A stretch of 64,000 nucleotides of DNA from Thermoanaerobaculia bacterium (GCA_963666565.1 OY762911.1:1440001-1504000), one strand, 5' to 3'. Shown: positions 5,205-56,997, counted from the first letter of the stretch. The notes: generated by a model from the sequence alone, not told the origin. Numbers and translations: made by a program.

Positions 5205-5223
5205 TTGCCGAAGGAGAACTCCG

Positions 5224-5753: not shown

Positions 5754-5800
5754 ACCTCGTTGACGGCGCGGCCGATCCGCCAAGCGAGCGGCCCGCCGGA

Positions 5801-8533: not shown

Positions 8534-8551
8534 CTCCTGGTCCCTCCGGCC

Positions 8552-8893: not shown

Positions 8894-8938
8894 GGTGTAG
8901 ACAAGCTACTCCATATGACGTAGATTGTCTACACCATG
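8891..8938. promoter_or_regulatory. Symmetric divergent promoter with two putative PadR boxes
   Basis: 19-bp inverted repeat (8891-8909 / 8920-8938, one mismatch) containing both start codons; each arm has GTAG-N5-CTAC. Confidence 0.7.
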
Positions 8939-10860: not shown

Positions 10861-10871
10861 GGAGGGCGGAC

Positions 10872-11048: not shown

Positions 11049-11102
11049 GGCGTTGTCTCCTCTCCGTCGTTTCTGGTTCTGCTTGCCGGCCGTGGTTCGG
11101 TC

Positions 11103-12233
11103 TCAGCCGTGCGTGTCGTTCGGCGGCTCGTAGCCCCAGGCTTCCACGGCGAAGCCCCAATGCCGGTCGACGACGTCGATCGTCTCCGGATCGATCCGGT
11201 AGGCGTTCTTGCGATAGCCCGACAGCGTCCCGAGGTAGTCGGCGACCGGCTGGCGGGCCCGCTCCCAGCCCGGCAGGTCGAGCTCGGCGTAGAGACGCTC
11301 GAGTTCGGCCATCGGGGCTCTCTCCAGATCCTCGAAGCGGACTTCGGCCAGGTGTCCCTTCGGGATCGACTCCCGGTCCTTCATGTACTGCCTCATCATC
11401 GCGGCGTAGGAGTCGAGCATGCTGGCGATCACCTCGTCCGGGTCCGCGTCGGCCAGTTGGCAGATGGGCAGCACCTTCCCGTACAGGTGCTTCATCGACC
11501 GGTAGACCAGGTAGGGATTCCGCACGATGTGGATGAACTTCGCGTCGGGGAACAGGCGCCGGAGCTCGGCGGTGCGGCCGAGGTTGGTCGGACTCTTGAG
11601 CACGAGCCGGCGGCCGCCAGCCGCCAGCGTGGCCTTGCGAAGCACGTCGAGATAGGCGCGTTCCCACCGCGTCATCTCGGAGCTCGTCAGCCGCATCGTC
11701 GCGTACTTCTCCTGGTACTCCCTCGCCCGGTTGGGGAAGGTGAGGTGATGCACGAACGACAGGTGCGACGTGTTGGCGAGCGCGATCTCCTCCTCCTGCG
11801 GCAGCTCCACGGACACGGCCATGTTGTCCATCGGGCGCGTCGCGGGCATTCCCCGGGCGACGAGCCGCTCCAGCCGGCCGCGCGCGACCAGGAACATCGG
11901 CGCCGCGACGGCCTGGAAGGTCGAGACGACGCCCAGGCCCGGGTCTTGCGCGAGCACGTTGTGCAGGTGCGTGGTGCCCGAGCGGCCGAAGCCGTGGATG
12001 TACAGCGGCGCGTGGGCGATCGGGACCCGCGCCATTCGCGCCGGGCCGTAGCGGAGGCGCTCGGCGACCCGCAGCGGGGCGAACAGGGCGGTGATCGCGA
12101 GCACCTTCGCCAGCTTGCCCCAGTACCGCGGCGGCACGCCTCCGTTGTCCGCGATGAGCCGAAGCCAGACGCCGAGCGGCGCCATCGTGAACGGGTGCTG
12201 CCCGGAGGTCCTGGGGGCGTCCACGACGGTCAT
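11103..12233 (-). CDS. PAPS-dependent sulfotransferase (Stf3-like)
   Basis: GFGRSGTTHLHNVL 5'-PSB loop; RPMDNM...PQEEE; VLKSP; FIHIVRNP; RFEDL. Confidence 0.88.
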   Translation of the reverse strand: MTVVDAPRTSGQHPFTMAPLGVWLRLIADNGGVPPRYWGKLAKVLAITALFAPLRVAERLRYGPARMARVPIAHAPLYIHGFGRSGTTHLHNVLAQDPGLGVVSTFQAVAAPMFLVARGRLERLVARGMPATRPMDNMAVSVELPQEEEIALANTSHLSFVHHLTFPNRAREYQEKYATMRLTSSEMTRWERAYLDVLRKATLAAGGRRLVLKSPTNLGRTAELRRLFPDAKFIHIVRNPYLVYRSMKHLYGKVLPICQLADADPDEVIASMLDSYAAMMRQYMKDRESIPKGHLAEVRFEDLERAPMAELERLYAELDLPGWERARQPVADYLGTLSGYRKNAYRIDPETIDVVDRHWGFAVEAWGYEPPNDTHG

Positions 12234-12441
12234 GGTAGCGCTGGGGTGAATGCGCGGAAGCCGGCGCTTCGCGTCGGATGCCGGCGGGAACCGGGTGGCG
12301 CGGTCCGCGCCACACGCGACTCAGTCCGCGCGTCTGTCAGCGGGCGCGCGGATGGCACCCCGGCGCGCCCGGTGGCCGATTGCGGCGGAGCGTCCCGTCG
12401 GGGAACATAGGCCGCATGTGCTTCAACCAGAAGGACCAGCC

Positions 12442-13728
12442 ATGAAGATCCTCCTCTACTGTCTGGCGGCCCTCGTCGTCATCGTCCTGGCGCTGTACTT
12501 CGCGTTCTTCTTCAATCCCCAGACGGAAGAACAGGAGGAGGTGAACGCGGCCTGGAGCCGGTTCGCCGAGGAGGTCGCGGAGATGGGCCGGGCCGTCGAG
12601 AGCGCGCCGTTCAACCGCGACGAACGGACCGCCGCCGCGGGATACCGGCACCTCGCCCGCTTTCTGTCGACCTTCCTGGCCGACTTCACGGACCTGCGGA
12701 ATCCGGACTACCCGCAATTCTCCCGATTCCCGAACAGCGTCGCCCGAGTCGGCTGGGACAACCCGGACAACCCCTATCTCGCGTTCGCGGTGCGGGGCGA
12801 CCACGTCTACCGGCTGCGCGGGAACGTGACGAACTTCGACCTCGTGACGATCAACGTCTACAGCGGCATGCTCGGCCACACGCCGGTGAGGAAGATCCGC
12901 ACGGTGTCGAGCATCGCCTCGGACGATCTCGACGTCGACGAGAACGGCGGCTTCGTCCTGACGCTGAGCGCCGTGCGGGCCGAGGGCGACTGGCTGAAGC
13001 TGGAGCCGGACGCCTACATGGTCATCGTCCGGCGCCTCGTGTCGGACTGGGAGAAGACGGACGAGGGCCTCTGGGAGATCCTCAACCTGACCACGCTGGG
13101 CGCCGGCGCACCCCGCCCGACGCCCGAGTCGGTCGCGCGCTCGCTCGACGACGCCGCGACCCAGACCCGCTCGCTGCGGGAGCTGCTAACGCTGGTGCAT
13201 CGGATCACGTTCCAGCTCGCGCTCAGGCCCAACAGGGTCTCGGAACCCGCCGAGGCCGACCCGAACCTGCCGATGGCCGACGCCTTCCAGGCGGCCTCCC
13301 GTGGCTGGTTCCGGCTGGAGGAGGACGAGGCCCTGCTGGTCGACGTGCCGGTCGCCGACTGCCGCTACACGAACATCCAGCTCGCCAACCCGTGGATGGA
13401 ATCGCTCGACTACGCCAGCCACCAGTCGAGCCTGAATCACCGTACCGCGCATGCGGACGCCGACGGCCGCGTGCGGTACGTGATCAGCCGCCGGGACCCC
13501 GGCGTACAGAACTGGCTCGACACCGCCGGCTGGGCGGAGGGGTCGCTCTGCGCCCGGTGGACGTACTGCAGCGAGTATCCGACCGGGGTCACGGCGCAGG
13601 TAGTGAAGCTGGACGAGCTCGACAGCCACCTACCCGCCGAAACGCCGAGGGTCGGCCCGGAGGAACGCGCGCGGATCGTGGCGGCGCGGCAGGCCGCGAT
13701 CAGCCGGCGCTATGCCGGCGGCTCGTAG
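12442..13728 (+). CDS. DUF1214-like membrane-anchored protein
   Basis: [34 protein letters not shown] motifs; N-terminal TM; AAGGA RBS. Confidence 0.75.
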
Positions 13729-13981
13729 CTGGGCCGGCAGAGAGATCGCGAGCCCGGGACGGGGTTTCTGCGTGATCGTGGCGGTTCGCCAACGTGCCGC
13801 TGACTTCCTTCGAGAGTCCGCACGGATGCGCCTGCAAGCGTCCCGCGGCTTCGCCCGGGCGCGCCGGTGGGGGATGGAGGGCGGCTGGTATTGGCTCGGC
13901 GGATCGTCCGGGGTCCCGCCGCCGGCGGGGAAGCGCGGCCTCGGATACACTGGCTTGCGGACTCTGGACGGACCGCTTGCC

Positions 13982-14641
13982 ATGACCGACGACGAACTGA
14001 AGGCGCTTGTTGCCAGGATCGCCGAATCCCAGGACCGGGCCGACGCCCGACAGGCGAAGATCGACGCCCGACAGGCGAAGATCGACGCCCAATTGGCGGA
14101 GAACGCCGCCCAACAGGCGAAGACCGACGCGCAACTGGCGAAGACCGACGCGCAACTGGCGAAGACCGACGCGCAACTGGCGAAGACCGACGCGCAACTG
14201 GCGAAGACCGACGCCAAGCTGAACCGGCTGGCGGAGATGTACGGCGGCCTCGGGAACAGCCTGGGCCAGGCGGCGGAGGAGTTCTTCTTCAACAGCCTCG
14301 ATGCCGACCCGGTACTGGGCGGCGGTCGCTTCGATGTCGTAACCAAGAACTTCCGTCGCAAGCGCGCCGGGCTGGAGGACGAGTTCGACCTGGTGCTGGC
14401 CAACGGTCGCGAGGTGCTGGTCGTGGAGGTCAAGTACAAGGCGCACGAGAACGACCTGCGGCGGCTGCTGGACAAGAAGGCGCCCAACTTCCGGCGCCTG
14501 TTTCTCGAGTACGCGGATCACGAACAGGGTCTGGCCTTGGCGTCTTTCCGCGTTCACGATGAACTCAAGCAGGCGGCCCTGGAGCGGGGCGTGACCGTGC
14601 TGCAGCGCAAGGGCGACGTGATCGAGACCATCGCCGCCTGA
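13982..14641 (+). CDS. Coiled-coil repeat protein with C-terminal PD-(D/E)XK nuclease-like domain (DUF3782-like)
   Basis: Heptad repeats DAQLAKT; G..AEEFF; EFDLVL..G..VLVVEVK. Confidence 0.72.
14042..14209 (+). repeat. 21-bp in-frame tandem repeat, 8 units
   Basis: GACGCGCAACTGGCGAAGACC x4 exact plus 4 variant units. Confidence 0.9.
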
Positions 14642-14679
14642 TCCGGCGGTCCGCCCGCGCACCCAGCGGCCGTCCGCCT

Positions 14680-16146
14680 TCAGGCGAGGACTTCCCGCAC
14701 GACCCGCGCCTTCTCGACGCCGGTCAACCGTGCATCCAGCCCCTGGTGGCGGTAGGTGAACCGCTCGTGGTCGATGCCGAACAGGTGCAGCACCGTGGCC
14801 TGGAGGTCGTGGACGTGGACCGGATCCTCGATGATGTTGTAGGAGAAGTCGTCCGTCTCGCCGTGGACGACGCCGCCCTTGACGCCGCCGCCGGCCATCC
14901 AGATGCTGAAGCAGCGGGGGTGATGGTCGCGGCCGTAGTTGTCCGCGGTCAGGGCGCCCTGGGAGTAGATCGTGCGTCCGAACTCGCCGCCCCAGATGAC
15001 CAGGGTCTCGTCGAACAGGCCGCGCTCCTTCAGGTCCTGAATCAAGGCCCAGGCGGCCCGGTCGACGTCGCGGGCCTGGGCCGGCAGCACCGTCGGCAGG
15101 ATGGAGTGGACGTCCCAGCCCCGGTGGTAGATCTGCACGAACCGGACCCCGCGCTCGACCAGCCGCCGGGCCATGAGCGCCGCGTTCTGGAACTTGCCGG
15201 GCTGCCGGGCTTCCTCGCCCCAGCGTTCCCAGGTGCGCTCCGGCTCGGCCGACAGGTCGGCCATCTCCGGCACCGATGACTGCATGCGAAACGCCATCTC
15301 GTACTGCTCGATGCGGGCCAGGGTCTCCGGATCGCCGATCTGGGCGTGGCGCAGCCGGTTCAGTTCGCTCATCCCGTCGAGCACGCGCCGGCGGACGTCG
15401 GGCGAGACGCCGTGGGGGTCCTTGAGATAGAGGACCGGCTCGTCTCCGGTCTGGAGCCCCACGCCGGCGTACTCGGGCGACAGGAAGCCGGCGCTCCAGA
15501 GCTTTGCCGAGATCGCCTGCAGGCCGGCGCGCGGGTGGCTGCGCTCGGCGTTCATCACGACGAAGGTGGGCAGGTCTTCGTTCATGCTGCCGAGGCCGTA
15601 CGCGAACCAGGAGCCGATGCACGGCCGGCCCGGGATCTGCTGGCCGGTCTGGATGAAGGTGATGCCCGGCTCGTGGTTGATCGCGTCGGTGTGCATCGAG
15701 CGGATGACCGCGATGTCGTCCGCCATGCTCGCCGTGTGGGGCAGGAGCTCGGAGAACCACGCGCCGTTCCCGCCGTGCTGGGAGAACTCGAAGACGGACG
15801 GCGCGATCGGGAAGCGCGACTGGCCGGAGGTCATCGTCGTCAGCCGCTGCCCCTGCCGGATCGAATCGGGCAGGTCCTGGTCGAAGTACTCCTTCATCTT
15901 CGGCTTGTAGTCGAGCAGGTCCATCTGCGGCGGCGCGCCCATCATGTGGAGGTAGATGCACTGCTTCGCCTTCGGCGCGAAATGCGGCAGATCGGGCAGG
16001 CCGCCGAAGCGGTCCCGGGCGACCGGCAGGGCGAAGAGGTCGTCGGCCATCAGGCTGGCCAGCGCCAAGCCGCCGATGCCGCGGGCGGCCGTGCCGAAGA
16101 ACTGGCGCCTCGTCTCGGCTCGAACGGTTTCCTTCAGTGGGTCCAT
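14680..16146 (-). CDS. DUF1501 family (sulfatase-like) Tat-exported protein
   Basis: TRRQFF Tat motif; HFAPKAK; ARRLVERGVRFVQ; GWDVH; WGGEFGRT; GRDHHP. Confidence 0.88.
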   Translation of the reverse strand: MDPLKETVRAETRRQFFGTAARGIGGLALASLMADDLFALPVARDRFGGLPDLPHFAPKAKQCIYLHMMGAPPQMDLLDYKPKMKEYFDQDLPDSIRQGQRLTTMTSGQSRFPIAPSVFEFSQHGGNGAWFSELLPHTASMADDIAVIRSMHTDAINHEPGITFIQTGQQIPGRPCIGSWFAYGLGSMNEDLPTFVVMNAERSHPRAGLQAISAKLWSAGFLSPEYAGVGLQTGDEPVLYLKDPHGVSPDVRRRVLDGMSELNRLRHAQIGDPETLARIEQYEMAFRMQSSVPEMADLSAEPERTWERWGEEARQPGKFQNAALMARRLVERGVRFVQIYHRGWDVHSILPTVLPAQARDVDRAAWALIQDLKERGLFDETLVIWGGEFGRTIYSQGALTADNYGRDHHPRCFSIWMAGGGVKGGVVHGETDDFSYNIIEDPVHVHDLQATVLHLFGIDHERFTYRHQGLDARLTGVEKARVVREVLA

Positions 16147-43031: not shown

Positions 43032-44186
43032 TCAGCGCGAGGCCACGCCGACGAGTTGGCGCCCGGCGCCTTCGCGCGGCGCCTCTGGCGACACGTCCCG
43101 CGGCTTCGCCTCCGGCTGCCACTCCGGGAAGAACTGCCGGTACCAGCGCCGCAGCCGGACGACCGGCCCGTCGTCGCGGCAGAGCGTCGGATGCGTCGTG
43201 TAGGTCTTGTTCTCCCAGATCCGGATGTCGTGCTCCCACTGGGAGATCCAGTTGCCGACGACGTACCAAACGAGCAGGCGCGGCATCCGGCGGTCGGCGA
43301 ACCAGTGGAAGTCGACCTGCTGCTCGAGCGGCGCGACCGGAAGGTGGGTCTGAACGATGTCGACCTCGCCGGCGCCGGGGATCGTGATGCGGAAGTTCAC
43401 GATGCTGGCCGGACCGGTGCAGGTGACCCGGGCGCTTGCCCGGGTCCGTTCGAGGCGCCGGCCGAAGACCCTGAGCACGGTCCGGTCGAGGAAGTACAGC
43501 CGCCAGGGCTTGTCGTCGTCCAGTTCCCATCCGGGCGTGTGGACGAGCTGAACGCCGGGAACCGGAATCTGCGTCCACGGCACCGTCATCTGGCTGTGGA
43601 TGTACCGGAAATGGGCGAAGTCGGCCGTGTTCTCAAGGAACTCGACGATGTGCATGCGCACGCAGCCGGCGTCGTGGTGGCCGCGGTAGGCGAAGCTCCC
43701 GTCGTCGACCTCCGGGATGCGGGGAACCGGGTAGGGGACGTGGTCGCCGGCCTGTTGCTTCGGTCCGGCGGCCCGGTGATGCAGGAAGATCTGCCCGTTC
43801 ACGTCCTCCACGGGGAAGCTCTCGGCCGCGACGCGGGACGGCACGGTGTCGCTGTACGGCACGCAGGCCGCCCGGCCGTCGCCGGTGAACTGCCAGTTGT
43901 GGAACGGACACTCGATGCGGTCCTCGCGGACGCGGCCGTGCCTCAGGTTCGCGCCCAGGTGGGGGCAGAAGGCCTGCATCGCGTGGACGTCGTCGCTGTC
44001 TTCGCTCCGCCAGACGACCAGCGCGCGGCCGAGGCACTCCAGGTAGCGCACCTGCCCGCGCCGGAGCGACTTCGACGTCATCAGCCGGTACCAGCCGTCC
44101 GGGTAGGGATGCGGATAGCCGGCGAGACGGAGATCGTCCGAGGTCGGCGGTTCCCGGCGCCGCGAACGGCGAGTGATGGCGCCCAT
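43032..44186 (-). CDS. Rieske oxygenase, Neverland/DAF-36-like sterol 7-desaturase candidate
   Basis: PHPYPDGWY; CPHLGANL...IECPFH Rieske site; ENTADFAHFRYIH mononuclear Fe site; DIRIWENK..P.L..DDGP...RRWYRQF. Confidence 0.8.
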   Translation of the reverse strand: MGAITRRSRRREPPTSDDLRLAGYPHPYPDGWYRLMTSKSLRRGQVRYLECLGRALVVWRSEDSDDVHAMQAFCPHLGANLRHGRVREDRIECPFHNWQFTGDGRAACVPYSDTVPSRVAAESFPVEDVNGQIFLHHRAAGPKQQAGDHVPYPVPRIPEVDDGSFAYRGHHDAGCVRMHIVEFLENTADFAHFRYIHSQMTVPWTQIPVPGVQLVHTPGWELDDDKPWRLYFLDRTVLRVFGRRLERTRASARVTCTGPASIVNFRITIPGAGEVDIVQTHLPVAPLEQQVDFHWFADRRMPRLLVWYVVGNWISQWEHDIRIWENKTYTTHPTLCRDDGPVVRLRRWYRQFFPEWQPEAKPRDVSPEAPREGAGRQLVGVASR

Positions 44187-44270
44187 CGCGGACCTAACGC
44201 TGGCGGAAGGCAGGCATCCGCTCGAATCGGAACGAGGCGATCGGGTCGTTCACGAAGTCCTCCAGGCGGC

Positions 44271-45350
44271 TCACGAGGGAGTCGTCGCGTCGCCGTCCGG
44301 CTTGCGCGCGTGGATGAGGAAGGAGGGCGTGAAGATGCCCGCCACGCCGCCCTCGACGAGGGAGTCGGCGGCCACGTTCAGGATGCGGGCGGCCTCGCCG
44401 GTGCCGGCGGGCGCGATGCGGAGCAGCTCGAGCAGACGGGTCGCCCCGGCCGTGAACCGGCGGCCCGCGGGAATCCGCCCGAGCGACGCGAGCGAAAGGT
44501 CGCGTCCCTGGAGCGACCGGTACCAGGGAGTGTCCGGATCGCACTCGAGGGAGTAGTCCTTCGCGGCCAGGATCTCGAAGCCGGCAGCCCTGGCCGCGTC
44601 GAGCTGCTGCGAAGTCGTGAGCAGGTTGGGCGTCGCGTTGGCGACTTCAAGCCGGTCGCGGATGTCGCGGTGGGCGGGATCGCCCGCGTCGTACCTCGCG
44701 GTGAGGCACCAGTCATTCAAGGCCAGCTCGCCGCCCGGTCTGAGCAGACGGAAGAACTCCTTGAAGCAGAGGTCCGTTCGGGGCGCGTGACAGACGGCGT
44801 CGAAGGAGTACGCCGCATCGAAGCAGCCGTCCTCGAGAGGCACGTCCAGGAAGTTCGCGAGCAGGAAGTCGCACGTCTCTTCGAGCCCGGCCCGGCGCAC
44901 CGCCCTGCGGCCTCTCTCGATCTGGAGCGCATTGAGGTTCAGGCCCGTGATGCTGGCGCCGGTGGCCTTCGCGATCGCGATCATCGGCCCGCCGACGCCG
45001 CATCCGAGATCGGCGGCCTTCATTCCCGGCTTGAGATCCAGGAGTTCGGCGACGCCGAGTTCGTGGCGGCGGACCGAGTCCCGGAGGCTCTCCCCGGATC
45101 GCCGAGGAGAGAAGTGGAACGACTGCCCCCAGCCGTACTCGTAGAAGCGGGTGACGACGTCGTAGTAGCGACTCACCATGCCGGGCTGACCGCGCAGGGC
45201 GCGGTCTTCTTCCTCCGCGCCGACGAGTGCCTTCAGCTCGAGGTAATCGTCGAGCGCCTCTCTCAGGGAGCCGCCGCTGTTGGCGGCCACGTGCGGACGA
45301 CCCGGTGTCGTCTCCACGCCGTCAACGTCGATGTGCGCTGGCTCTGCCAT
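44271..45350 (-). CDS. Sterol 24-C-methyltransferase-like protein (ERG6/SMT family)
   Basis: YYD.VT.FYEYGWGQSFHF; DLGCGVGGP; ITGLN.N..Q; YSFDAVCHAP; RLLRPGG; PWY; LVEGG..GIFTP; GGGAGG RBS. Confidence 0.88.
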   Translation of the reverse strand: MAEPAHIDVDGVETTPGRPHVAANSGGSLREALDDYLELKALVGAEEEDRALRGQPGMVSRYYDVVTRFYEYGWGQSFHFSPRRSGESLRDSVRRHELGVAELLDLKPGMKAADLGCGVGGPMIAIAKATGASITGLNLNALQIERGRRAVRRAGLEETCDFLLANFLDVPLEDGCFDAAYSFDAVCHAPRTDLCFKEFFRLLRPGGELALNDWCLTARYDAGDPAHRDIRDRLEVANATPNLLTTSQQLDAARAAGFEILAAKDYSLECDPDTPWYRSLQGRDLSLASLGRIPAGRRFTAGATRLLELLRIAPAGTGEAARILNVAADSLVEGGVAGIFTPSFLIHARKPDGDATTPS

Positions 45351-45399
45351 GGGCGCCGTGCCTCCCCGCCCGTGAGCCTATACCCGCGTCGAGGAGGTC

Positions 45400-46989: not shown

Positions 46990-48099
46990 TCAGTCGCAGC
47001 CTTCGCGCGTCTCTTCGATGAGGCCATCGACGACGGCGTTCAGGTCGCCCGCCTCGGCGCGGGCGATCTGGCGGTCGGCGCTGGTGCCCTCGGCGAGGAT
47101 CCGGTGGACGTACTCGACCTCCTTGCGGATGTTCAGCTCGTCCAGCACGTCGTCGACGAAGTCGAGGAGTTCCTCGGTCAGAGAGCGAAGCGGCACCTCC
47201 TCGCCCTTGCCGAAGTCGATCAGCTTGCCGTCGATGCCGTAACGGATCGCGCGCCACTTGTTCTCGTAGATCAGGTGGCGGGGATAGCGGCGCCAGGCCT
47301 GGTTGTTATGGCGGAGGCGGATCAGCTTGCCGACGATCGCCATCAGGAGCGCCGTCATGCACAGCGCCTCCTCGATCTTCGTGCAGACGTCGAAGACCCG
47401 GAACTCGATCGTCGGGAACTTGGGGTGCGGCCGGACGTCCCACCAGATCTGCGTCGGCTCCTCGATGCACCTCGTCTGGACCAGCACGTTCACGAGCCGC
47501 TCGTACTCGGCGTAGGAGCGGAGCGACGGCGGCAGGCCGGAGCGGGGGAGGCTCTCGAAGACGACGGAGCGGTAGGACTTGAGCCCCGTGTTGCGCCCCT
47601 GCCAGAACGGCGAACTCGTCGACAGCGCGAGCAGGTGCGGCAGGAAGTAGAGCGACTGGTCCATCACGTCGATGCGGAGTTCCTTGTCGGGAACGCCGAC
47701 GTGGACGTGCATGCCGAAGATCAGCATGCGCCGGGCGACGTCGCCGAAGTTCTCCTGCAGCTTGATGTAGCGCTGCGCCTCCGTGACGTCCTGCTCCTGC
47801 CAGGCCGAGAACGGATGGCTGCTGGCCGCCGCGATGCGGAGTCCGTTCCGGGACGCCAGGTGCCCGATCGACCGCCGCAGCCGGATGAGCTCCTGGCGCG
47901 CCTCGTCGATCGAGCCGCAGACCTCGCTGCCGACCTCGACCTGGCACTGCAACTGCTCCGCCTTGATCTGCTCCTGGAGCACGATCTGGCCCTGCTCCAG
48001 GAACTTCTGGATGAAGGGCTTCAGTTCCCGGCTCTCGGGTTCGATGATCTGGTACTCCTCTTCGATGCCGATGGTCAGCTCGGGAAGTCTCGTCTTCAT
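46990..48099 (-). CDS. ybdK: Carboxylate-amine ligase, glutamate-cysteine ligase family 2
   Basis: TIGIEEEYQ, FGMHVHVG, LLALSTSSPFW, WWDVRPHP.FPTIEFR and ENKWRAIRYG motifs. Confidence 0.9.
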   Translation of the reverse strand: MKTRLPELTIGIEEEYQIIEPESRELKPFIQKFLEQGQIVLQEQIKAEQLQCQVEVGSEVCGSIDEARQELIRLRRSIGHLASRNGLRIAAASSHPFSAWQEQDVTEAQRYIKLQENFGDVARRMLIFGMHVHVGVPDKELRIDVMDQSLYFLPHLLALSTSSPFWQGRNTGLKSYRSVVFESLPRSGLPPSLRSYAEYERLVNVLVQTRCIEEPTQIWWDVRPHPKFPTIEFRVFDVCTKIEEALCMTALLMAIVGKLIRLRHNNQAWRRYPRHLIYENKWRAIRYGIDGKLIDFGKGEEVPLRSLTEELLDFVDDVLDELNIRKEVEYVHRILAEGTSADRQIARAEAGDLNAVVDGLIEETREGCD

Positions 48100-48233
48100 C
48101 GGGCCTGCTCCTGGGTTGGGGGATGCCGCAAGCGTATCCGGCCCGCGCGGGACGGCCGCGGCGCGCGGCCCATCCCGCGCGCGCTCCCGGGGGACCGGCG
48201 ACGCCGGGGCGCTCTGATACCGTGACGCCCGCC

Positions 48234-50006
48234 ATGAGCTGGCCCGCGACCACCGCCTGGCGCCCGCGGGTTCCCCGCGCGGTGAGCTGGCTGCTCGTTC
48301 CGCTCCTGCTTCTGGGAGCGGCCTGCGGCGGGCGCGACGCGGCGCCGGACGCCGCCGCATCCTGGCCGCTCTACGGCACGGCGCCCACGGCGCGCGGCGA
48401 GGCGGGCATGGTCGTCAGCGGCCACGGCCTCGCCTCCGACGTCGGCGCCGCGATCCTGGCGGAGGGCGGCAACGCGGTCGACGCGGCCGTCGCGGTCGGC
48501 TTCGCCCTGGCCGTCGTGCTGCCGTCCGCCGGCAACCTCGGCGGCGGCGGCTTCCTCGTCTACCGGTCGAGCGACGGCGACGCGCGCGCCCTGGACTACC
48601 GCGAGAAGGCGCCGGCCGCCGCCAGCCGGGACATGTTCCTGGACGACGAGGGCAAGGTGACGGAGGCGTCGGTCATCGGCCACCTCGCCGCCGGCGTCCC
48701 TGGCTCGGTGGCCGGCCTGTGGGAGATGCACCGGGAGTACGGCACGTTGCCCTGGGCCGACCTCGTCGCGCCGGCGGTCGAACTCGCCCGCGGCCACGAG
48801 ATCGACGAAGCCCGCTCCGGAAGCCTGGCCCGCGCGGCGTCGCGGCTCGAGCGCTTTCCCGCCAGTGCGGCCCAGTTCCTGGTCGACGGCGAGGCGCCGC
48901 CGCCGGGCACGGTCCTGGCCCAGCCCGACCTGGCCGCGACGCTGACCGCGATCGCGGAGCAGGGGCCGGACGGCTTCTACCGCGGTCCCGTCGCCGATCT
49001 GATCGTCGCCGAGATGGAACGGGGCGGCGGGCTCATCTCCCACCGGGACCTGGAGGACTACGCCCCGGTCTGGCGCGAGCCGGTCGTGGCCGAGTACCGG
49101 GGCCACACGATCTTCTCGATGCCCCCGGTCTCCTCGGGCGGACTCACCCTGGGCCTCATCCTGAACGTGCTGGAGGGCTGGGATCCGCTGCCGCCGTTCG
49201 GCAGCGCCGGCCTGGTGCACGTGGAGGCGGAGACGATGCGGCTCGCCTTCCGCGACCGCAACACCCTGCTCGGCGACCCGGACTTCATCGACATTCCCCG
49301 CGCGCAGTTCGAGTCCCAGGAGTACGCGGACGAACTGCGGGCGCGGATCGATCCCGAGCGCGCGACGCCGCTGCCGCCGATCGAGGCGGCGCCGCCGGCC
49401 GAGAGCGCCGAGACGACGCACTACTCCATCGTCGACCGCTGGGGCGCGGCGGCGTCCGTCACCACGACGATCAACGGCGCCTACGGGAACGCCGTCACGG
49501 TCGCCGGCGCCGGCTTCCTGCTGAACAACGAGATGGACGACTTCGCCGCGTCGCCGGGCCAGCCGAACCAGTTCGGGCTGGTCGAGGGCGAGAACAACGC
49601 GATCGTGCCCGGCAAGCGGATGCTCTCCTCGATGACGCCGAGCATCGTGCTCGACCCGGAAGGCGATCTGATGATGGTGGTCGGCACGCCGGGCGGCCCG
49701 ACGATCATCACCTCCGTCTACCACGCGATCTCGAACGTGATCGACCACGGGATGCCGCTCGACCGGGCGGTCGAGAGCCCGCGGGTGCATCATCAGGCGT
49801 GGCCGGACCGGATCTTCTACGAGGAGGAAGGGCTCGCCGCCGACGTGGTCCAGGAACTGGAGCGCCGCGGGCACCGGGTGGTCGGCCGGGGCCACAGCGG
49901 CGACGTCGCCGCCATCCTGGTGGAGGGGTCGAGCCTCGTCGGCGTGGCGGACCCGCGGCGAGGAGGCGGCGCCAGCGCGCCGGACTCGCCCGGCGACGCC
50001 GACTGA
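48234..50006 (+). CDS. ggt: Gamma-glutamyltransferase (lipoprotein)
   Basis: GGNAVDAAVA, GNLGGGGF, DYREKAP, ETTHYSIVD (Thr nucleophile), LLNNEMDDF, KRMLSSMTP and GTPGG motifs. Confidence 0.95.
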   Translation: MSWPATTAWRPRVPRAVSWLLVPLLLLGAACGGRDAAPDAAASWPLYGTAPTARGEAGMVVSGHGLASDVGAAILAEGGNAVDAAVAVGFALAVVLPSAGNLGGGGFLVYRSSDGDARALDYREKAPAAASRDMFLDDEGKVTEASVIGHLAAGVPGSVAGLWEMHREYGTLPWADLVAPAVELARGHEIDEARSGSLARAASRLERFPASAAQFLVDGEAPPPGTVLAQPDLAATLTAIAEQGPDGFYRGPVADLIVAEMERGGGLISHRDLEDYAPVWREPVVAEYRGHTIFSMPPVSSGGLTLGLILNVLEGWDPLPPFGSAGLVHVEAETMRLAFRDRNTLLGDPDFIDIPRAQFESQEYADELRARIDPERATPLPPIEAAPPAESAETTHYSIVDRWGAAASVTTTINGAYGNAVTVAGAGFLLNNEMDDFAASPGQPNQFGLVEGENNAIVPGKRMLSSMTPSIVLDPEGDLMMVVGTPGGPTIITSVYHAISNVIDHGMPLDRAVESPRVHHQAWPDRIFYEEEGLAADVVQELERRGHRVVGRGHSGDVAAILVEGSSLVGVADPRRGGGASAPDSPGDAD

Positions 50007-50031
50007 GGGGCCGGGTGGCCGTGGCCGGCGC

Positions 50032-53000
50032 ATGAACGGCCGGCGGATCTTCGCCGCGGTGACCGTCGGTCACCTCGGCATCGACATCTTCAACAGCATG
50101 GGGCCCGTGCTGCTGGCCTTCCTGCAGGCGCCGCTCGGTCTGAGCGCCGCGCAGATCGGCCTCGCGGTGGGCCTCTTCCAGGTCCTGGCCGGCACGACCC
50201 AGCCGGCGTTCGGCTGGCTGGTCGACCGGATCGGCAGCCGCTTCCTGGGTCCGCTCAGCGTCGCCGTCAACCTCGGCTGCGTGGCGCTCGCGGTCGCGGC
50301 CGCCGGCGCGACGGGCAGCTTCGTCCTGTTCCTCGTTCCGTTCGCGCTCGCCGCGGTCGCGTCGGGCGCCTTCCATCCGCTGGGCGTGATGCACTCCAGC
50401 ACGGTCAACCTGGCGCGCTCGGCCACGTTCACCGCCATCTTCTTCTTCTGCGGCCAGGTGGGGCTGACGACCGGGCCGGTCCTGGCCGGCCTCGCGCTGG
50501 ACCGCGCGGGGCTTGCCGGGATCTACTGGCTGGTGCTGATCGTCGCGCCGGTGCCGCTGTTCATGGCCTTCGCGATGGGGCCGCGGCGGGTCCATTCCGC
50601 GCCCGCCACGGCTCACCCGGGTGAGAGTCGGGCCGACGACGGCGTCGGCGACGCGGCGTCCGGCGGCCGGCTTCCCCTGCGGGTCGGCGCCGTCGCTCTG
50701 CTCGCGCTGGTCTTCGCCAGCCGGTCCTGGGCCGTGTTCGGGACGATCGCGTTTCTGCCCCTGCTGCTGAGCGGGTACGGCTACAGCTCCCTGGCCCAGG
50801 GGGTCGCCAGCGCGATGTTCCTGCTGGGCGGCGCCGTCACCGCGGTCTTCGCCGGCGCCTGGGCCGATCGCTGGGGCCGGCGCCCGGTCGTCTTTCTGAC
50901 CACGCTGCTCGGTTCGCTGCTGCTGGCCGTGTTGCCGGGCGCCGGCGGCTGGCTGTTCGCCGTCGTCCTGCCCTGCGGCGCGCTGCTGGGCGCCTCGCAC
51001 TCCATCCTGATCGTCACGGCCCAGTCGTTGCTGCCGTGGCGCCGGGGCCTGACCTCGGGGACGGCGCTCGGTTTCCTGTTCGCGACCGGCGGGATCGCCA
51101 CCTGGGCCATCGGCGAACTGGCCGACCGCTACGAACTGGCGACCGTGCTGCAGGCGGGGGCGATCGTCGGCTTGGTGTCCGCGGTCTCCTCCCTCCTCCT
51201 GCCGAGGCGGGGCCGGGCCCCGCTGGCGGCCGCGCCGGCGGTTTCGACGGCGCTCGTCGTCGCGGTCGCCGGCCTCACGCTGTTCGGCGCCCGTCCGGCG
51301 GCCGCCGGCCTGAACGGCGAGATCAACGGCCAGGTGCGCGACGCCGCGACCGACGTGCCGCTGGCGGGCGCGGAGATCAGGATCACGGGCGACCAGTTGC
51401 ACAGCACCCAGATCGTCCGCGCCGGCCGCGGCGGCAGCTACCGGGCGCCGGGCCTGCCTCCCGGCGACTACTACGTCGAGGCGAGCGTGGACGGCTACGC
51501 GACCTCCGTCGTCGAGAACCTGATCCTGGTCGCCGGCGGCGTGCTGCGGGTCGACTTCCGGATGAGGGCCGGCAGCGCCTCGGCGCTCGATCTCGTCACG
51601 TCGCCGCTGCTCGACGTGGTCACCGGCAGCGACGGCAACGTCCTCGCCGGCGACGACCTGCGCGAACTCCCTGGCGCCGCGGCGGCGTTCAACCTCGACC
51701 TGGCCTCCGGCCTCGACGGGCTGGACGGAGACGTGGCGGTCAACGGCTGGTCGCCCGGCTTCGCCACCTACCGGATCGACGGTCAGGAGAGCGCGGTCCG
51801 CGAACCGGACGCCGCTGGCATCGATCCTCGCTGGGTGGACCAGGTACGGGTCTGGACGATGGAACTGGCGGCCGCGATGGCCGGTCCGCACATCGACCTG
51901 ATCACGCGCTCGGGGGGGACCGAGTGGCGGGCCAACGGCGGCTGGTCGACGGTCGAGCCGCTCGACACAGGCAAGCGGCTGGCCCTGCGCCTGCTCGACG
52001 CCGGAGAGTCGCCGGCCGGCGGCAGGGACCGGAGACGCATCGAGGGCGACGAAGCGACCGTCTTCGCCGGCGGGCCGCTGCGGGACAAGCGGGCGCGCGC
52101 GTTCGGCGGCCATTCGAGAAGCCGCGCGCGCGGCACGGAGAACCTCTTCGGCGCGGGCGCGCCGCTGACCTGGGACGAGACGGTCGAACAGTCCGTCGGT
52201 AAGCTCGACTGGTGGGCCGGCTCGGCCAGCAACCTGACCCTCAAGCACCACAGCGCGGCCGGCGAGCTGGACGGCCGGCGACCGGCGCCGTTCGTTCTCC
52301 CGTCCGCGGACGGGAACGAGAGCGCCCGGTCGCGCCGGCAGACGACCAGCCTGAACGTGGAGTGGGGAATCACCGACCGGCTCTGGCTGCGCGTCTTCGG
52401 CGGGCGCTCCGACTTCACCGGGACGGGCGAACCGTGGCAGGACGCGGGGGCGTACTTCGCGGCGCCCGCGCCCGGCCGGGCGGCGGGCTGGTACGAGGCG
52501 GGTCCGGCGGGCCGGGTTCGGCGGGCGGTGGAGCGGCGGAACTGGGCGGTGGAACCGTCGTTCTTCTTCTTCGACCACACGCTGGAGGTCGGCGTGCAGA
52601 GCACGAAGGGCCGCCTGGATTTCGCCCGATCCGGACGCTCCGCGCGGATTCTGGAGTTGCCGGGCGGCCCGCTCGACACCTGGAGCGGCGATGGTGTCGG
52701 CGCTTACCGGCTCCGGCAGGAGAAACGCGCCGTCTACGTCCAGGACGCCTGGCGCGTTGGCGGCGCTTTCGAGCGGCGGCTGACGCTGCACGCGGGACTG
52801 CGCGCGGAAGAGGAAGAGGCGGGCCCGCTCGACCTTGAGTTCGAAGACCGCACGGAACCTCGGCTCGCGTTCGTCTGGGACGCCGCGGGCCGCGGCAGGT
52901 GGAAGGTCTACGGCGGCGCGGCGTGGTGGCACGTCGAGGTCTTCCGGCCGGGGGCGGGCCGCGCGGACGTCGACGCGGTCGCGGCCGTGGAAGCGGCCGG

Positions 53001-53988
53001 CGGCTACGGCGGCACGAGCCTCGACTTCGCACGGGCGGCGGTGGACCCTGACCTCCGTCCCGGCCGGGTGCGCGAAGTCCAGTTGGGTACGGTCTACCAG
53101 TTCCTGCCCGACGTCGTCATCTCGGCACGGGTCGCCCGGCGCCGGTTGCGGGACGGCATCCGCCTCCTGCCCGCGTTGGCCGGCGGCGAAGTCGTGCCGA
53201 CTCTGCTGACTCCCGGCCGCGGCGCCGGCCGGGCGCCCTGGGGCGAAGCCGGCGGGGAGCTTCCCCGGCTCGAGCAGAACTGGTGGGGCGCCGAACTGAA
53301 CGCTCATGTCGGCTTCAACCCCTCGTGGAGGATTCGCTTCTCGTACGTCCTGAGCCGGCTGACCGGCAACCACGAGGCCGGCGGACTCGGGCTCGGGCCG
53401 GGCGACCTGCCGGGCGCCCATCCGGCCCTTGCCGCGCTCGACCTGTGCTCCTCGCCCGTGCCCTGCGACGTGTTCGATGTCACGAACGACAGCCGCCGGC
53501 TGAGCCTCGACCGCGAGCACCAGCTCTCCGGCTGGCTCGTCCTCTCACCGGGCGAACGCTGGCAGATGGCCCTGGTCTACCGCTTCCGCACCGGCGCCGC
53601 CTACGTGCCGCGCGCCTTGGCGGTCCGGGTCGACGGGGAGAGCCGCATCCTCGGCGCCGGCCTGACTCCTTTGCCGTCCGGCGCGGACGGGCCGCTCAAG
53701 AGCGCCGATCTCAAGCGCGCCGACCTGTCTCTCACCTACCGCGTCCCGCTTCGCTCGGACGACCGGCGGCTGTCCCTCTTCGCCGAGGCCCTCAACGTCT
53801 TCGACCAGGACGCCGCGAACCAGCTCTGGCCGCTCGCCTGGCTCGACCCGGTCCTCGTCGGCCCGGGCCGTACCGACCTGCTCGCCGCCGCGGCAGCGCA
53901 GGGGGCAAGGCCGGATCCGCGCGAGTCGCTTCCCGCCGCCTTCCAGACCAGCCGCCGCGTACGCGCCGGTCTGCGCCTCCAGTTCTGA
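50032..53988 (+). CDS. MFS transporter (Fsr-like) fused to a TonB-dependent receptor-like outer-membrane protein
   Basis: aa 1-390: MFS with FGWLVDRIG and WADRWGRR motifs; aa 426 on: GEINGQVRD..TDVPLAGAEI / LPPGDY carboxypeptidase-regulatory-like domain, YVQDAW, LTLHAGLR, EALNVFD, C-terminal GLRLQF. Confidence 0.8.
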   Translation: MNGRRIFAAVTVGHLGIDIFNSMGPVLLAFLQAPLGLSAAQIGLAVGLFQVLAGTTQPAFGWLVDRIGSRFLGPLSVAVNLGCVALAVAAAGATGSFVLFLVPFALAAVASGAFHPLGVMHSSTVNLARSATFTAIFFFCGQVGLTTGPVLAGLALDRAGLAGIYWLVLIVAPVPLFMAFAMGPRRVHSAPATAHPGESRADDGVGDAASGGRLPLRVGAVALLALVFASRSWAVFGTIAFLPLLLSGYGYSSLAQGVASAMFLLGGAVTAVFAGAWADRWGRRPVVFLTTLLGSLLLAVLPGAGGWLFAVVLPCGALLGASHSILIVTAQSLLPWRRGLTSGTALGFLFATGGIATWAIGELADRYELATVLQAGAIVGLVSAVSSLLLPRRGRAPLAAAPAVSTALVVAVAGLTLFGARPAAAGLNGEINGQVRDAATDVPLAGAEIRITGDQLHSTQIVRAGRGGSYRAPGLPPGDYYVEASVDGYATSVVENLILVAGGVLRVDFRMRAGSASALDLVTSPLLDVVTGSDGNVLAGDDLRELPGAAAAFNLDLASGLDGLDGDVAVNGWSPGFATYRIDGQESAVREPDAAGIDPRWVDQVRVWTMELAAAMAGPHIDLITRSGGTEWRANGGWSTVEPLDTGKRLALRLLDAGESPAGGRDRRRIEGDEATVFAGGPLRDKRARAFGGHSRSRARGTENLFGAGAPLTWDETVEQSVGKLDWWAGSASNLTLKHHSAAGELDGRRPAPFVLPSADGNESARSRRQTTSLNVEWGITDRLWLRVFGGRSDFTGTGEPWQDAGAYFAAPAPGRAAGWYEAGPAGRVRRAVERRNWAVEPSFFFFDHTLEVGVQSTKGRLDFARSGRSARILELPGGPLDTWSGDGVGAYRLRQEKRAVYVQDAWRVGGAFERRLTLHAGLRAEEEEAGPLDLEFEDRTEPRLAFVWDAAGRGRWKVYGGAAWWHVEVFRPGAGRADVDAVAAVEAAGGYGGTSLDFARAAVDPDLRPGRVREVQLGTVYQFLPDVVISARVARRRLRDGIRLLPALAGGEVVPTLLTPGRGAGRAPWGEAGGELPRLEQNWWGAELNAHVGFNPSWRIRFSYVLSRLTGNHEAGGLGLGPGDLPGAHPALAALDLCSSPVPCDVFDVTNDSRRLSLDREHQLSGWLVLSPGERWQMALVYRFRTGAAYVPRALAVRVDGESRILGAGLTPLPSGADGPLKSADLKRADLSLTYRVPLRSDDRRLSLFAEALNVFDQDAANQLWPLAWLDPVLVGPGRTDLLAAAAAQGARPDPRESLPAAFQTSRRVRAGLRLQF

Positions 53989-53991
53989 CCG

Positions 53992-54155
53992 CCGGGTGCG
54001 CGGGTCTTCCGACCGCTGGGTGCGCGGGTCTTCCGACCCGCATCGGGCGAGCCGCGAAGCGGCGGAGCCCGGAGAATCGGGCCGCCGGCCAAAGGCCGGC
54101 GACGCTGCCGGTCGCCGCCTCCGGCGGCAGCGGGTCGGAAGACCCGCGCACCCGG
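53992..54155. repeat. REPIN-like cluster: two direct cores plus one inverted core
   Basis: Cores at 53992 and 54016 (+) and one ending at 54155 (-), between convergent genes. Confidence 0.88.
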
Positions 54156-54166
54156 TGTGGGGCGGC

Positions 54167-56917
54167 CTACACCAGTTCGCTCAGCCGCCGCAGCGCGGCC
54201 AGCAGGTCCGGCTGTTCCGTCAGCACGCCGCGGAGCGGGTCGGCCTTCAGCTCTTTCAGCCGCTCGGGCACGGTGCGGATGTTGTGGTCGCGCAGGTCGA
54301 GACCGGGCTTGACTTCCGACCAGCGAAGCGGCGTCGACACCGGCGCCGCGGGCAGCGGCCGGACGCTGAAAGGGGCCACGAGCAGCCGGCCTCGGCCGTT
54401 CTGGACGTAGTCGATGTAGACCTTGCCGGCGCGCCGTTCCGGGTTGCGGGTCACGGTGGCGATCTCGGGCAGTTCGCGGCAGACGATCTGGGCGATGAGC
54501 TGCCCCAGGCCGCGCGACTGCTCCCATGTGCAGGCGCCGCCGAGCGGCAGGAGCACGTGCAGGCCGCTCGAGCCGCTGGTCTTGACGAAGCTGGGCAGCT
54601 CGATCTTCCGGCACAGGCGGCGGATGGCGAGGGCGATTTCGATCACGTCCTCGAACGGGGCGTCCTTGGGGTCGAGGTCGAGGATGCACCAGTCGGGCTG
54701 GCCGAGCCGGTGCAGCCGGCTGGACCACACGTGGAGGACGATCGCGGCCAGGTTGGCCACGTAGAGGAGGCTCTCGCGGTTCTGGCAGACGAAGTACTCG
54801 ACGTCCTTGCCGGTCCGCGGGCTGGTCAGCCGGACCGTCTGGAGCCAGTCCGGCGCGAAGTCCGGCGCGTTCTTCTGGAAGAAGGACTTGCCGTCGATCC
54901 CGTCCGGGTAGCGGGTCATCACCAGGGGACGGTCGCTCAGGTAGGGCTGGATCGCCCCGGCGACGGCGGCGTAGAAGTCGATCAGATCGCCCTTTGCGTA
55001 GCCCTCGTCCGGCCAGAAGACCTTGGAGACGTTCGTGATCTCGACCCGGCGCTTGGGCGGCACGGGCGGGGCGGCGCTCTTCGCGCGCGGCCCGGCGCGC
55101 CGGACGCAGTCCCCGATCGGCTTGTCGTCCCGGCGCCGCAGGAAGACCGGATGCCGGAGCAGGCCGTGGGGCGTCCACTCCTTGAAGCGGACCTCGCAGA
55201 CCAGTTCGTCGTCCGGCTCGACCCAGGTCTGGTCGGCGATGCGGCCGCCCATGATGTGCTCGTCGGCGAGCGCGGCGCCGGCCGGCGTCGCGCGGCCGTC
55301 TCCGGCATCGCCGGCGCCGTCTTCGATGTCTCGGTTGCCGCGGTCGCCGCCGTCCGCCGCCACGGGCGCTCCGCACGGAGGGCTGTCGCGCCGTCTGGCC
55401 GTCAGGCGCTCCGTCAGTTGCGCGAGATCCGCGTCGCTGAATCCCGTGCCGACGCGCCCGGCGTAGACGAGCCCGCCTCGCGGTCCGCCGTCGCCGCTGG
55501 CGCCTTCCGCTCCCTCGACGGCCCCGGCCTCGGGGTCCCAGACCGCCAGGTGGAGCGAGCCGAAGCCGACCCGGCTGCCCTTGGGCGGCGACATGCCGAC
55601 GATGGCGAAGTCGGCGGTGCGCTCGGTCCGGAACTTGACCCAGGACGACGAGCGGCGGCCCACGTAGCGCGACGCGCCGTCCTTGGCCATCGCCCCCTCG
55701 AGACCCATGGCGGCGACCTGCTCGAAGAACGCCTCTCCCTGCTCCTCGATGTGGTCGGAGTAGCGAAGCGGACCGGCCGGCGGCAGCACCCTGGCAAGCA
55801 GGGCCTTGCGCTCCAGCAGCGGCAGCGGGCGCAGGTCGCGGCCCTCGAACGACACCAGGTCGAAGGCGAACAGGGTCGCCGGCTGGCGCACGGCGGCCCG
55901 CTCGATGTCGACCTGGCGGCTGAGCAGGCCGCGCTGCTGCAGCCGGGGGAAGCTCGGCCGGCCGCCGCCGTCGAGCACGACGACTTCGCCGTCGAGGACC
56001 AGGGACTGCGCCGGCAGCGCTCGCAGGGCGCGGGTCAGCTCCGGGTAGAGCGCGGTCACGTCGCCGCCGCGCCGGTAGCGCAGGAAGACGTCGCCGCCCT
56101 CCCTGGCGGCGATCAGCCGGTAGCCGTCGTGCTTCAGTTCGTAGATCCAGCCGGCGCGGGAGAAGGGCCGGTCGCCCGCCACCGCCAGCATCGGCGGCAG
56201 CGTCCGCGGGTCGACCCGGCGGCGCGGCGCCGCCGACGCCTCGATCTCCTCCCGCACCTCCTCGATCCGCTCGCAGCCGTCCCGCAGTTCCTCCACGGTC
56301 AGGCCCGAGAGCACGGACTCCTGCGGCAGGCCGTCTCCGGGGCCGGCGTCCCCGTCGCCGCCGGCAGGGTCGGTGTGCATGTCGCTGCCGGCCCGGTTCG
56401 CGCCGTCGTCGCTGCCGGCCGGCCGCGCCGCGGCGTCCGGCTTCTTCATGAGCAGCCACTGACTGCCGTCCTCGGCCTGCCGCCGGCCGCCGGTGCGGAA
56501 CAGCGTCCACACGCCGCGCAGCTTGTAGCCCCGCAGCTCGAACAGGAGCTTGCCGCTCTCCATGCCGGCCACCGGATCCTCGAGCGGGACCCAGCGTCCG
56601 CTGTCCCACACGATCATCGCGCCGGCGCCGTAGTTGCCGGCGGGGATCGAGCCCTCGAAGTCGGCGTACTCCAGCGGGTGGTCCTCGGTGGCCACCGCGA
56701 GCCGCTTGACCTCCGGGTCGAGGCTGGGGCCGCGCGGCACGGCCCAGGACTTGAGCGTGCCCTCGAGTTCCAGGCGCAGGTCGAAGTGGACGCGGCGAGC
56801 GGCGTGCTTCTGGACGACGAAGCGCCCGCCGCCGGCCGCGGCTCGAGAGCCCATCGGCTCGGGCGTCGCGTCGCCCGAACGCTTGCGGCGGTAGACCTCC
56901 AGATCGCCGTGCGGCAT
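54167..56917 (-). CDS. ligD: NHEJ DNA ligase D (phosphoesterase-ligase-polymerase)
   Basis: FVVQKHAARRVHFDLRLE (PE domain); YELKHDGYR and EGAMAK (ligase); RYPDGIDG, DLDP and KTSGSSGLH (Pol). Confidence 0.95.
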   Translation of the reverse strand: MPHGDLEVYRRKRSGDATPEPMGSRAAAGGGRFVVQKHAARRVHFDLRLELEGTLKSWAVPRGPSLDPEVKRLAVATEDHPLEYADFEGSIPAGNYGAGAMIVWDSGRWVPLEDPVAGMESGKLLFELRGYKLRGVWTLFRTGGRRQAEDGSQWLLMKKPDAAARPAGSDDGANRAGSDMHTDPAGGDGDAGPGDGLPQESVLSGLTVEELRDGCERIEEVREEIEASAAPRRRVDPRTLPPMLAVAGDRPFSRAGWIYELKHDGYRLIAAREGGDVFLRYRRGGDVTALYPELTRALRALPAQSLVLDGEVVVLDGGGRPSFPRLQQRGLLSRQVDIERAAVRQPATLFAFDLVSFEGRDLRPLPLLERKALLARVLPPAGPLRYSDHIEEQGEAFFEQVAAMGLEGAMAKDGASRYVGRRSSSWVKFRTERTADFAIVGMSPPKGSRVGFGSLHLAVWDPEAGAVEGAEGASGDGGPRGGLVYAGRVGTGFSDADLAQLTERLTARRRDSPPCGAPVAADGGDRGNRDIEDGAGDAGDGRATPAGAALADEHIMGGRIADQTWVEPDDELVCEVRFKEWTPHGLLRHPVFLRRRDDKPIGDCVRRAGPRAKSAAPPVPPKRRVEITNVSKVFWPDEGYAKGDLIDFYAAVAGAIQPYLSDRPLVMTRYPDGIDGKSFFQKNAPDFAPDWLQTVRLTSPRTGKDVEYFVCQNRESLLYVANLAAIVLHVWSSRLHRLGQPDWCILDLDPKDAPFEDVIEIALAIRRLCRKIELPSFVKTSGSSGLHVLLPLGGACTWEQSRGLGQLIAQIVCRELPEIATVTRNPERRAGKVYIDYVQNGRGRLLVAPFSVRPLPAAPVSTPLRWSEVKPGLDLRDHNIRTVPERLKELKADPLRGVLTEQPDLLAALRRLSELV

Positions 56918-56997
56918 CAGGCGTGCATTCTCCCAGAACGTCAAGGGAGCTTCACGGAATCCCGCGGAAGCGGTTTCAATGCTAGGATTTGCGGTCT

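Follow-up and report, generated by a model that had tools for sequence, protein, structure and literature searches.

A gene conserved across a genus of uncultured Acidobacteria encodes an inner-membrane MFS transporter and an outer-membrane TonB-dependent receptor in one frame, probably as a polyprotein with an internal signal peptide

We analysed a window of 64,000 nucleotides (nt) from a Thermoanaerobaculia bacterium (GCA_963666565.1 OY762911.1:1440001-1504000), in which a single gene encodes two membrane proteins of different kinds. The open reading frame (ORF) starts with ATG and continues for 1318 codons and a stop, with no internal stop in the ORF listing or the translation. It specifies a complete major facilitator superfamily (MFS) transporter, followed by an Oar-type TonB-dependent receptor that ends in LRLQF. 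An earlier reading of this DNA, made from the sequence alone (the sequence-only reading), had described both the uninterrupted frame and this pair of proteins, and the Pfam matches, structural models and translation agree with it. The gene is real and under selection, and is conserved across a genus of uncultured Acidobacteria. We think it probable that its product is a polyprotein, which signal peptidase I would cut into a transporter for one membrane and a receptor for the other. The window is 70% GC and long spurious frames are abundant in it, so an open frame by itself is weak proof of a fusion. The features of the gene and its neighbours are collected in Table 1.

The MFS half matches PF07690 over profile positions 12-324 of 347. 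AlphaFold modelling of aa 1-533, with a mean predicted local distance difference test score (pLDDT) of 85.7, places 12 helices between aa 2 and 387, mostly at pLDDT >90 and with a loop at 182-217, and hydropathy agrees with this arrangement. All 17 invariant columns of a 62-sequence MFS family alignment are kept in the window protein. Motifs of the D-R-x-G-R type stand in the loops after helices 2 and 8, and by their positions both ends of the MFS half are cytoplasmic, which leaves the basic linker inside and the receptor outside. Many of the 156 shorter MFS homologues are named FSR family by the Joint Genome Institute (JGI), and the NCBIfam MFS subfamily models gave scores far below their cut-offs on the fused protein. 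Transporters of the Fsr (fosmidomycin resistance) type have 12 helices in about 400 aa, and the window MFS is 45-61% identical to standalone homologues in metagenome-assembled genomes (MAGs) of Acidobacteriota. Compared with these standalone proteins, it adds a 13th helix and an 893-residue extension that is predicted to be exported.

The receptor half (aa 426-1318) was modelled from an alignment of 57 sequences with a mean pLDDT of 79.8 and a predicted template-modelling score (pTM) of 0.84, and the model is consistent with a complete TonB-dependent-transporter fold. The CarboxypepD_reg beta-sandwich is modelled at pLDDT 83-93. The top Foldseek matches were all TonB-dependent transporters (PqqU, FusA, YddB, Cir and FpvA), with E-values of 2e-30 to 3e-28 and TM-scores of 0.6-0.69 on the target. 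A mixed alpha/beta domain, formed by mature residues ~100-205, lies inside the modelled barrel and aligns with solved transporters, and the receptor family profile matches the plugs of Cir, PirA and FepA. Position alone identifies the candidate TonB box, a conserved stretch between sandwich and plug in the family consensus. At least 90% of the 57 aligned receptors share the terminal Phe. The nearest standalone relatives are about 990 aa long and 28-32% identical; the ESM Atlas returned only ordinary Oar-type receptor clusters (score 0.75) and no fused cluster, a result uninformative about other fusions. Oar-type transporters have an N-terminal CarboxypepD_reg domain followed by plug and barrel. 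The window receptor has the same N-terminal domain and a barrel, with a putative plug between them that is degenerate by sequence, but it lacks its own N-terminal signal peptide. The Oar protein of Myxococcus xanthus is reported to be required for protease secretion (PMC6434023). Given this tie to protein secretion, the receptor encoded here could serve either direction of transport.

The two halves meet in a segment, aa 392-425, that contains a basic n-region, a hydrophobic core with a hydropathy peak of 1.98, a helix breaker and small residues at -3 and -1. A signal peptide with a mature start near 51307 had been proposed at this junction by the sequence-only reading, and the residues it quoted were found at aa 391-437. 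The segment aligns with the signal peptides of two paralogous receptors from the same genome (found by tblastn with the N-terminal or the whole receptor as query; HMMER gave seven matches) and of three outgroup receptors, and it sits where theirs sit. In the paralogues the signal peptides end in A-W-A and A-V-A and are followed by G-x-I/L-x-G-x-V-x-D; the same beta-sandwich start follows A-A-A in the fused protein. The predicted signal peptidase I site lies between bases 51306 and 51307, with G426 as the predicted first residue of the mature receptor.

Sites for signal peptidase I follow the -3/-1 rule, and we read these positions in 39 species-level genomes of the genus (this genome with 24 + 9 + 5 relatives). 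Position -1 is Ala in all 39, and -3 is Ala in 37 and Val in two, whereas ten different residues occur at -2 (S, A, W, M, H, Y, F, R, T and C). Such freedom at -2 beside fixed -1 and -3 fits a cleavage site, and a structural helix need not show it. Pro stands at -4 in the orthologue rows printed, and the hydrophobic core varies in sequence among orthologues but is constant in character. In the AlphaFold model the helix at 403-416 does not pack against the MFS half and its pLDDT is below 50, and the beta-sandwich is confident from residue 429. The modelled topology shows the 13th segment oriented N-in/C-out, as a signal peptide requires. Two other types of signal were considered and rejected. 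A Tat signal would call for a conserved twin Arg, but the pair present in this genome is replaced by K-R-E, K-Q-E and similar sequences in orthologues, and the lack of Cys at +1 speaks against a lipoprotein signal. The genome encodes two signal peptidase I genes, one BamA and five TonB_C matches. The residue directly after the predicted site (51307 and its equivalents) is Gln in nine of 36 fused orthologues and in both paralogues, which recalls the +1 Gln rule described for substrates of signal peptidase I in Bacteroidetes (PMC5837995).

Table 1. The fused gene, its parts and the neighbouring genes, in window positions; values are E-values, and cleavage and topology are predicted.
Feature	Position	Strand	Evidence and remarks
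Fused ORF	50032..53988	+	1318 aa plus stop; GC content at third codon positions (GC3) 0.92, as in real genes of the window
Fsr-like MFS transporter domain, aa 1-391, 12 transmembrane helices, both ends cytoplasmic	50032..51204	+	Pfam MFS_1 (aa 21-335, 8.9e-29), AlphaFold model, hydropathy
Short basic cytoplasmic MFS tail, aa 392-397, now n-region of the internal signal	51205..51222	+	K/R-rich in fused orthologues
Fossil start codon of the former receptor gene, CTG = Leu398	51223..51225	+	homologous to outgroup GTG/TTG starts (G435, G400)
Internal signal peptide, hydrophobic core aa ~399-419 and c-region	51226..51306	+	hydropathy, motif conservation, alignment with true signal peptides
CarboxypepD_reg-type beta-sandwich, N-terminal periplasmic domain of Oar-type receptors, aa 431-511	51322..51564	+	PF13620, 1.7e-15
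Putative degenerate plug, aa ~525-630, with TonB-box-like stretch ~520-535 ahead	51604..51921	+	model and family profile
TonB-dependent-transporter-type beta-barrel with C-terminal aromatic beta-signal (last residue Phe)	51928..53985	+	PF00593 (TonB_dep_Rec_b-barrel, aa 761-1256), 6.1e-12
Gamma-glutamyltransferase (ggt)	48123..50006	+	PF01019, 1.1e-162; TIGR00066, 1.6e-151; 25 bases upstream of the fusion
Glutamate-cysteine ligase family 2 (GCS2), divergent neighbour	46990..48360	-	PF04107, 2.9e-58
LigD, convergent downstream, end of the ggt-fusion unit	54167..56944	-	LigD_Prim-Pol, 6.3e-83; LigD_N, 1.2e-40

The junction was compared with Logan contigs from four sequencing runs (three samples of one study). 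The comparison covered 49800-54100 and showed no differences and no gaps across the junction; 51150-51320, where the sequence-only reading had asked for read support, is clean. One contig spans 49800-54013 and another 49800-53384, both free of differences and gaps, and the junction is bridged by two more that reach 51330. The genome's own source sample may be among these runs, and the agreement of the contigs tests the assembler, not the biology.

Within the genus, 35 of the 39 genomes have the MFS inside an open frame of 1314 aa or more. The four genomes that lack the long frame are two drafts in which it breaks inside the receptor part (G011 and G016), one in which the gene is spread over two contigs (G007), and G010. 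When the junction itself was read codon by codon it was in frame and free of stops in 38 of the 39, with identities of 66-93%, and in one fused genome, G279, the linker differed in length by one residue. The MFS part is 66-85% identical to the window protein among these genomes. As the same frame has been kept in 38 of 39 genomes despite 70% GC, it is beyond chance. Homologues that retain both domains in one ORF are thus found across the genus, and a set of 5.8 billion proteins contains 35 fused proteins, with identities of 64-93%. The source records call them 'MFS transporter', in MAGs of Holophagales or Acidobacteriota, or 'FSR family fosmidomycin resistance protein-like MFS transporter'. 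No orthologue of the MFS was found in a sample of 129 genomes from 11 other families of the order (E<=1e-20), nor in a sample of 363 genomes from 22 other families of the class (E<=1e-40).

The origin of the gene can be followed in the rest of the family. All five genomes from four other genera encode an unfused MFS orthologue (54-56% identity), in frames 414-537 aa long. The sequence-only reading had named two separate genes in all relatives as an outcome that would refute it; this holds outside the genus but not within it, and the separate genes outside explain where the fusion came from and do not refute it. In three of the five outgroup genomes (G125, G400 and G435) the MFS gene is succeeded, on its own strand, by a distinct gene for a CarboxypepD_reg/TonB-barrel protein that has an ordinary signal peptide at its N-terminus. 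These pairs share the gene order, strand and ggt linkage of the fused locus, and their receptors have the same architecture, but each keeps its own stop, Shine-Dalgarno site, start and signal peptide with a basic n-region. In G125 the MFS stop is followed by AGGAGG, 10 nt, a TTG start, the signal peptide with its basic n-region, and the beta-sandwich. In G400 the receptor TTG overlaps the MFS TGA as TTGA, with GAGGAGG just 5', and in G435 a GTG start overlaps the MFS stop as GTGA. A four-base overlap of this type places the two genes one base out of register, so that changing a single base joins the frames and makes the start a sense codon.

That codon can still be recognised in the fused gene, at position 398. 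In 35 aligned fused rows it is CTG in 27, TTG in four, GTG in two and TTC in two; it is CTT in G158 and GTC in G279, and G289 was not read. After the conserved L-L-P the MFS tail has six residues in the fusion against 8-17 in the outgroups, and from codon 398 to A-x-A there are 28 residues against 22-27 for the outgroup signal peptides. Both lengths fit a merging of frames. The comparison shows that the fusion derives from an adjacent MFS and receptor gene pair through a one-base frame merge. The ancestor would have carried ggt, then an Fsr-like MFS gene and an Oar-type receptor gene with its own Shine-Dalgarno site, start and signal peptide. In some relatives the two would be translationally coupled by a GTGA or TTGA overlap, and in the ancestor of the fused genus the one-base merge would have removed the MFS stop. 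The locus thus keeps a series of steps, from separate genes through overlapping stop and start to a fusion with a fossil start codon, and suggests that a one-base change can convert a coupled gene pair into a polyprotein.

These features suggest how the product may be made and processed. A ribosome would read from helix 12 of the MFS through the basic tail, the old start (Leu398) and the old signal peptide into the receptor. The MFS would insert with its C-terminus in the cytoplasm, and the signal segment would enter the translocon N-in/C-out as a 13th helix and start the export of the 893-residue receptor part. Signal peptidase I would then cut after A-x-A, between aa 425 and 426. BAM would recognise the C-terminal aromatic signal of the freed receptor and fold it into the outer membrane, and the MFS would stay in the inner membrane and keep the uncut signal helix. 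The two membrane steps of a single transport route would then necessarily be made in a 1:1 ratio. The substrate of the route is probably a gamma-glutamyl or thiol-related compound handled by the periplasmic gamma-glutamyltransferase (GGT), whose gene is presumably co-transcribed, and import and export are both conceivable. The sequence-only reading had also put forward a polyprotein cleaved by LepB, and the conserved A-x-A, the free -2 position and the topology favour it; we regard cleavage into two proteins as the probable fate of the product.

Several observations weigh against this reading. Pfam Plug had no match in the whole protein, nor at E<=10 when aa 512-773 were searched alone. Similarity between the outgroup receptors and the window receptor is low (32% over 107 aa in G125, 37.5% over 128 aa in G400), and a genome search with the receptor, run on G125 and G130, gave no match in G125 at E<=1e-8. 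Because of this low similarity the orthology of the outgroup receptors rests mainly on synteny. The remaining genome of the 39, G010, is a complete genome in which the linker is 17 nt instead of 18. Here the MFS ends at its own TGA, which overlaps a CTG as CTGA, and the receptor follows in a different frame, the sole such case among the 39, with both halves apparently intact. The public annotation of the G010 receptor (P0037) begins 3' of the signal peptide, and the annotated protein has no export signal. Either G010 is unfused and works through a CTG or a reinitiation start, or its genome contains a one-base error. In the MFS tree G010 is nested beside G021 on a long branch (0.96; support 83/69), and in the ggt tree it falls in a basal polytomy; the trees are compatible with a secondary split, with an ancestral state and with an assembly error of one base. 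That G010 descends from a fused ancestor is suggested by the CTG where its receptor would start. In many orthologues, moreover, the K-R-E codons form an SD-like (Shine-Dalgarno-like) GGAG or AGGAG 9-10 nt 5' of codon 398, and six genomes have TTG or GTG at that codon, so that a degree of internal initiation may occur.

These last features belong to the strongest rival explanation, that initiation at codon 398 with the help of GGAG makes most of the receptor and that read-through into the fusion yields a side product which is tolerated. Of the 35 aligned rows, 33 have a near-cognate or canonical initiator at codon 398, and the intact out-of-frame receptor of G010 would need such a start, in a CTGA overlap whose geometry is known from coupled genes. 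CTG is, however, a very poor initiator, and four of the 37 fused genomes read have a codon that does not initiate at all (TTC twice, CTT and GTC). A signal peptide that started at codon 398 would lack a basic n-region, as none of 36 sequences has K or R in the next seven residues, whereas the outgroups carry them. The sequence-only reading had noted that the junction has no ATG and no clear start linked to a Shine-Dalgarno site. The first part holds: the in-frame TTG and GTG at 51172-51177 do exist, but the GTG is replaced by GCG, GTA and GTC in three orthologues. The strong AGGAGG of the outgroup has been lost from the fused genus. The sequence-only reading overlooked the fossil start at 51223-51225, which keeps internal initiation in play as a rival. 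With no ATG, a codon 398 that is mostly CTG, no AGGAGG and no K or R after 398, independent initiation of the receptor looks to have been lost. As there is no MFS stop, every ribosome that translates the MFS makes the fusion in any case, and we consider it unlikely that internal initiation is the main source of the receptor.

If the fusion is made, it might also remain whole, with the 13th helix as an anchor and the outer-membrane barrel tied to the inner-membrane MFS in one chain. The retention of the frame in 38 of 39 genomes would suit such a tether, as would the flexible, low-confidence stretches that the models place on both sides of the beta-sandwich. But A-x-A, Pro at -4 and a free -2 are the needs of a cleavage site and not of an anchor. 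The span, about 10 residues, a small domain and a further ~25-30 residues, would reach an estimated ~17 nm when fully stretched, which is marginal for the periplasm, and the same short stretch would also have to present the TonB box. The two parts moreover run as separate proteins in the outgroups, and possibly in G010. We therefore think an uncut tether distinctly improbable. Were it true, the protein would be a single-polypeptide trans-envelope transporter in which the barrel hands substrate to the permease, with periplasmic GGT alongside. That the fusion is instead an assembly or frameshift error, or the recent and functionless loss of a stop codon, is hardly credible. The 70% GC does let open frames run long by chance, and the gene is broken elsewhere in several drafts (G011 and G016), but independent short-read contigs agree exactly, the junction stays in frame across species-level genomes with only the one single-residue length change seen in G279, and the family-invariant residues are kept in both halves. 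An assembly artefact is very unlikely.

The preferred reading, a polyprotein cut by signal peptidase I, has a precedent in the arrangement of its parts. A polytopic membrane protein, an exported protein and an internal signal peptide in one ORF is the layout of an FbcH-type polyprotein, and all three are present here. FbcH, the cytochrome b/c1 polyprotein of Bradyrhizobium japonicum, was reportedly described by Thony-Meyer and colleagues in about 1989-1991 as having an internal signal peptide at which cleavage by signal peptidase was proven. As is proposed here, it is said to hold a polytopic inner-membrane protein and an exported partner in one chain that is split at the internal signal peptide. 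The systems differ in that both FbcH products reportedly stay in one inner-membrane complex, whereas the second product here would be an outer-membrane barrel that crosses the periplasm and is folded by BAM, and in that cleavage, said to be proven for FbcH, is predicted here from the features of the site. A literature search, which did not cover subscription journals, gave no account of a fusion between a TonB-dependent receptor and an MFS or other inner-membrane protein. What is unusual here is that the second product of the polyprotein is an outer-membrane barrel, together with an unusually clear series from coupled genes to fusion.

The genes around the fusion point to gamma-glutamyl metabolism. 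The ggt gene, which the sequence-only reading had placed 25 bp upstream, is found there, and the linkage is general: ggt lies upstream of the fusion in all 26 genus loci with enough flank and upstream of the MFS gene in four of five outgroup loci. The divergent arrangement of GCS2 and ggt (46990-50006) brings genes for gamma-glutamyl synthesis and breakdown next to the transporter fusion. A GAF-GGDEF diguanylate cyclase gene lies between ggt and the MFS gene in G125, and ORFs of ~390-416 aa occupy the same place in G435 and G419. The intervening gene has been lost in the fused genus, where the gap between ggt and the fusion is 25 bases.

A scan for promoters and terminators in and around the gene gave no promoter and only weak terminator-like matches inside the coding sequence, which we did not use. 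The spacer between the fusion stop and LigD (53988-54160) contains a GC-rich unit of ~25 nt in two direct copies and one inverted copy. A 90-nt probe from it gave 1132 blastn-short matches across the genome, and the depth of the Logan contigs jumps there from 10-100 to 2,500-14,800. The repeat looks like a family of repetitive extragenic palindromes (REP-like), and by folding into a long hairpin it could terminate the transcript of ggt and the fusion. Elsewhere in the window, at 43032-45377 on the minus strand, is a gene for a protein with a sterol methyltransferase C-terminal domain (PF08498, 4.6e-19) and S-adenosylmethionine (SAM)-methyltransferase domains. It adjoins a Rieske/KshA-like oxygenase gene (PF19298, PF00355), so that this genome of an uncultured member of the Acidobacteriota carries a pair that looks sterol-modifying.

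In the usual view, each outer-membrane barrel is synthesised as a precursor of its own, carries an N-terminal signal peptide and is exported after translation. In the fused genus a barrel of ~97 kDa would be reached only by ribosomes that have just built a 12-helix inner-membrane protein, and because the barrel is encoded after the MFS, its export would start at a translocon already engaged co-translationally. The locus is thus a natural test case for the action of signal peptidase I on internal signals in bacteria, for the tolerance of outer-membrane proteins to co-translational targeting, and for how cells set a 1:1 ratio of two membrane steps in one transport route. On the Rosetta-stone principle, an uncharacterised Fsr-like MFS and an Oar-type receptor are moreover linked by their fusion to gamma-glutamyl metabolism. 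If the polyprotein is cut as proposed, barrels carried as C-terminal extensions of polytopic inner-membrane proteins, with co-translational targeting of the signal recognition particle (SRP) type, could conceivably represent a general and unrecognised route of outer-membrane protein biogenesis.

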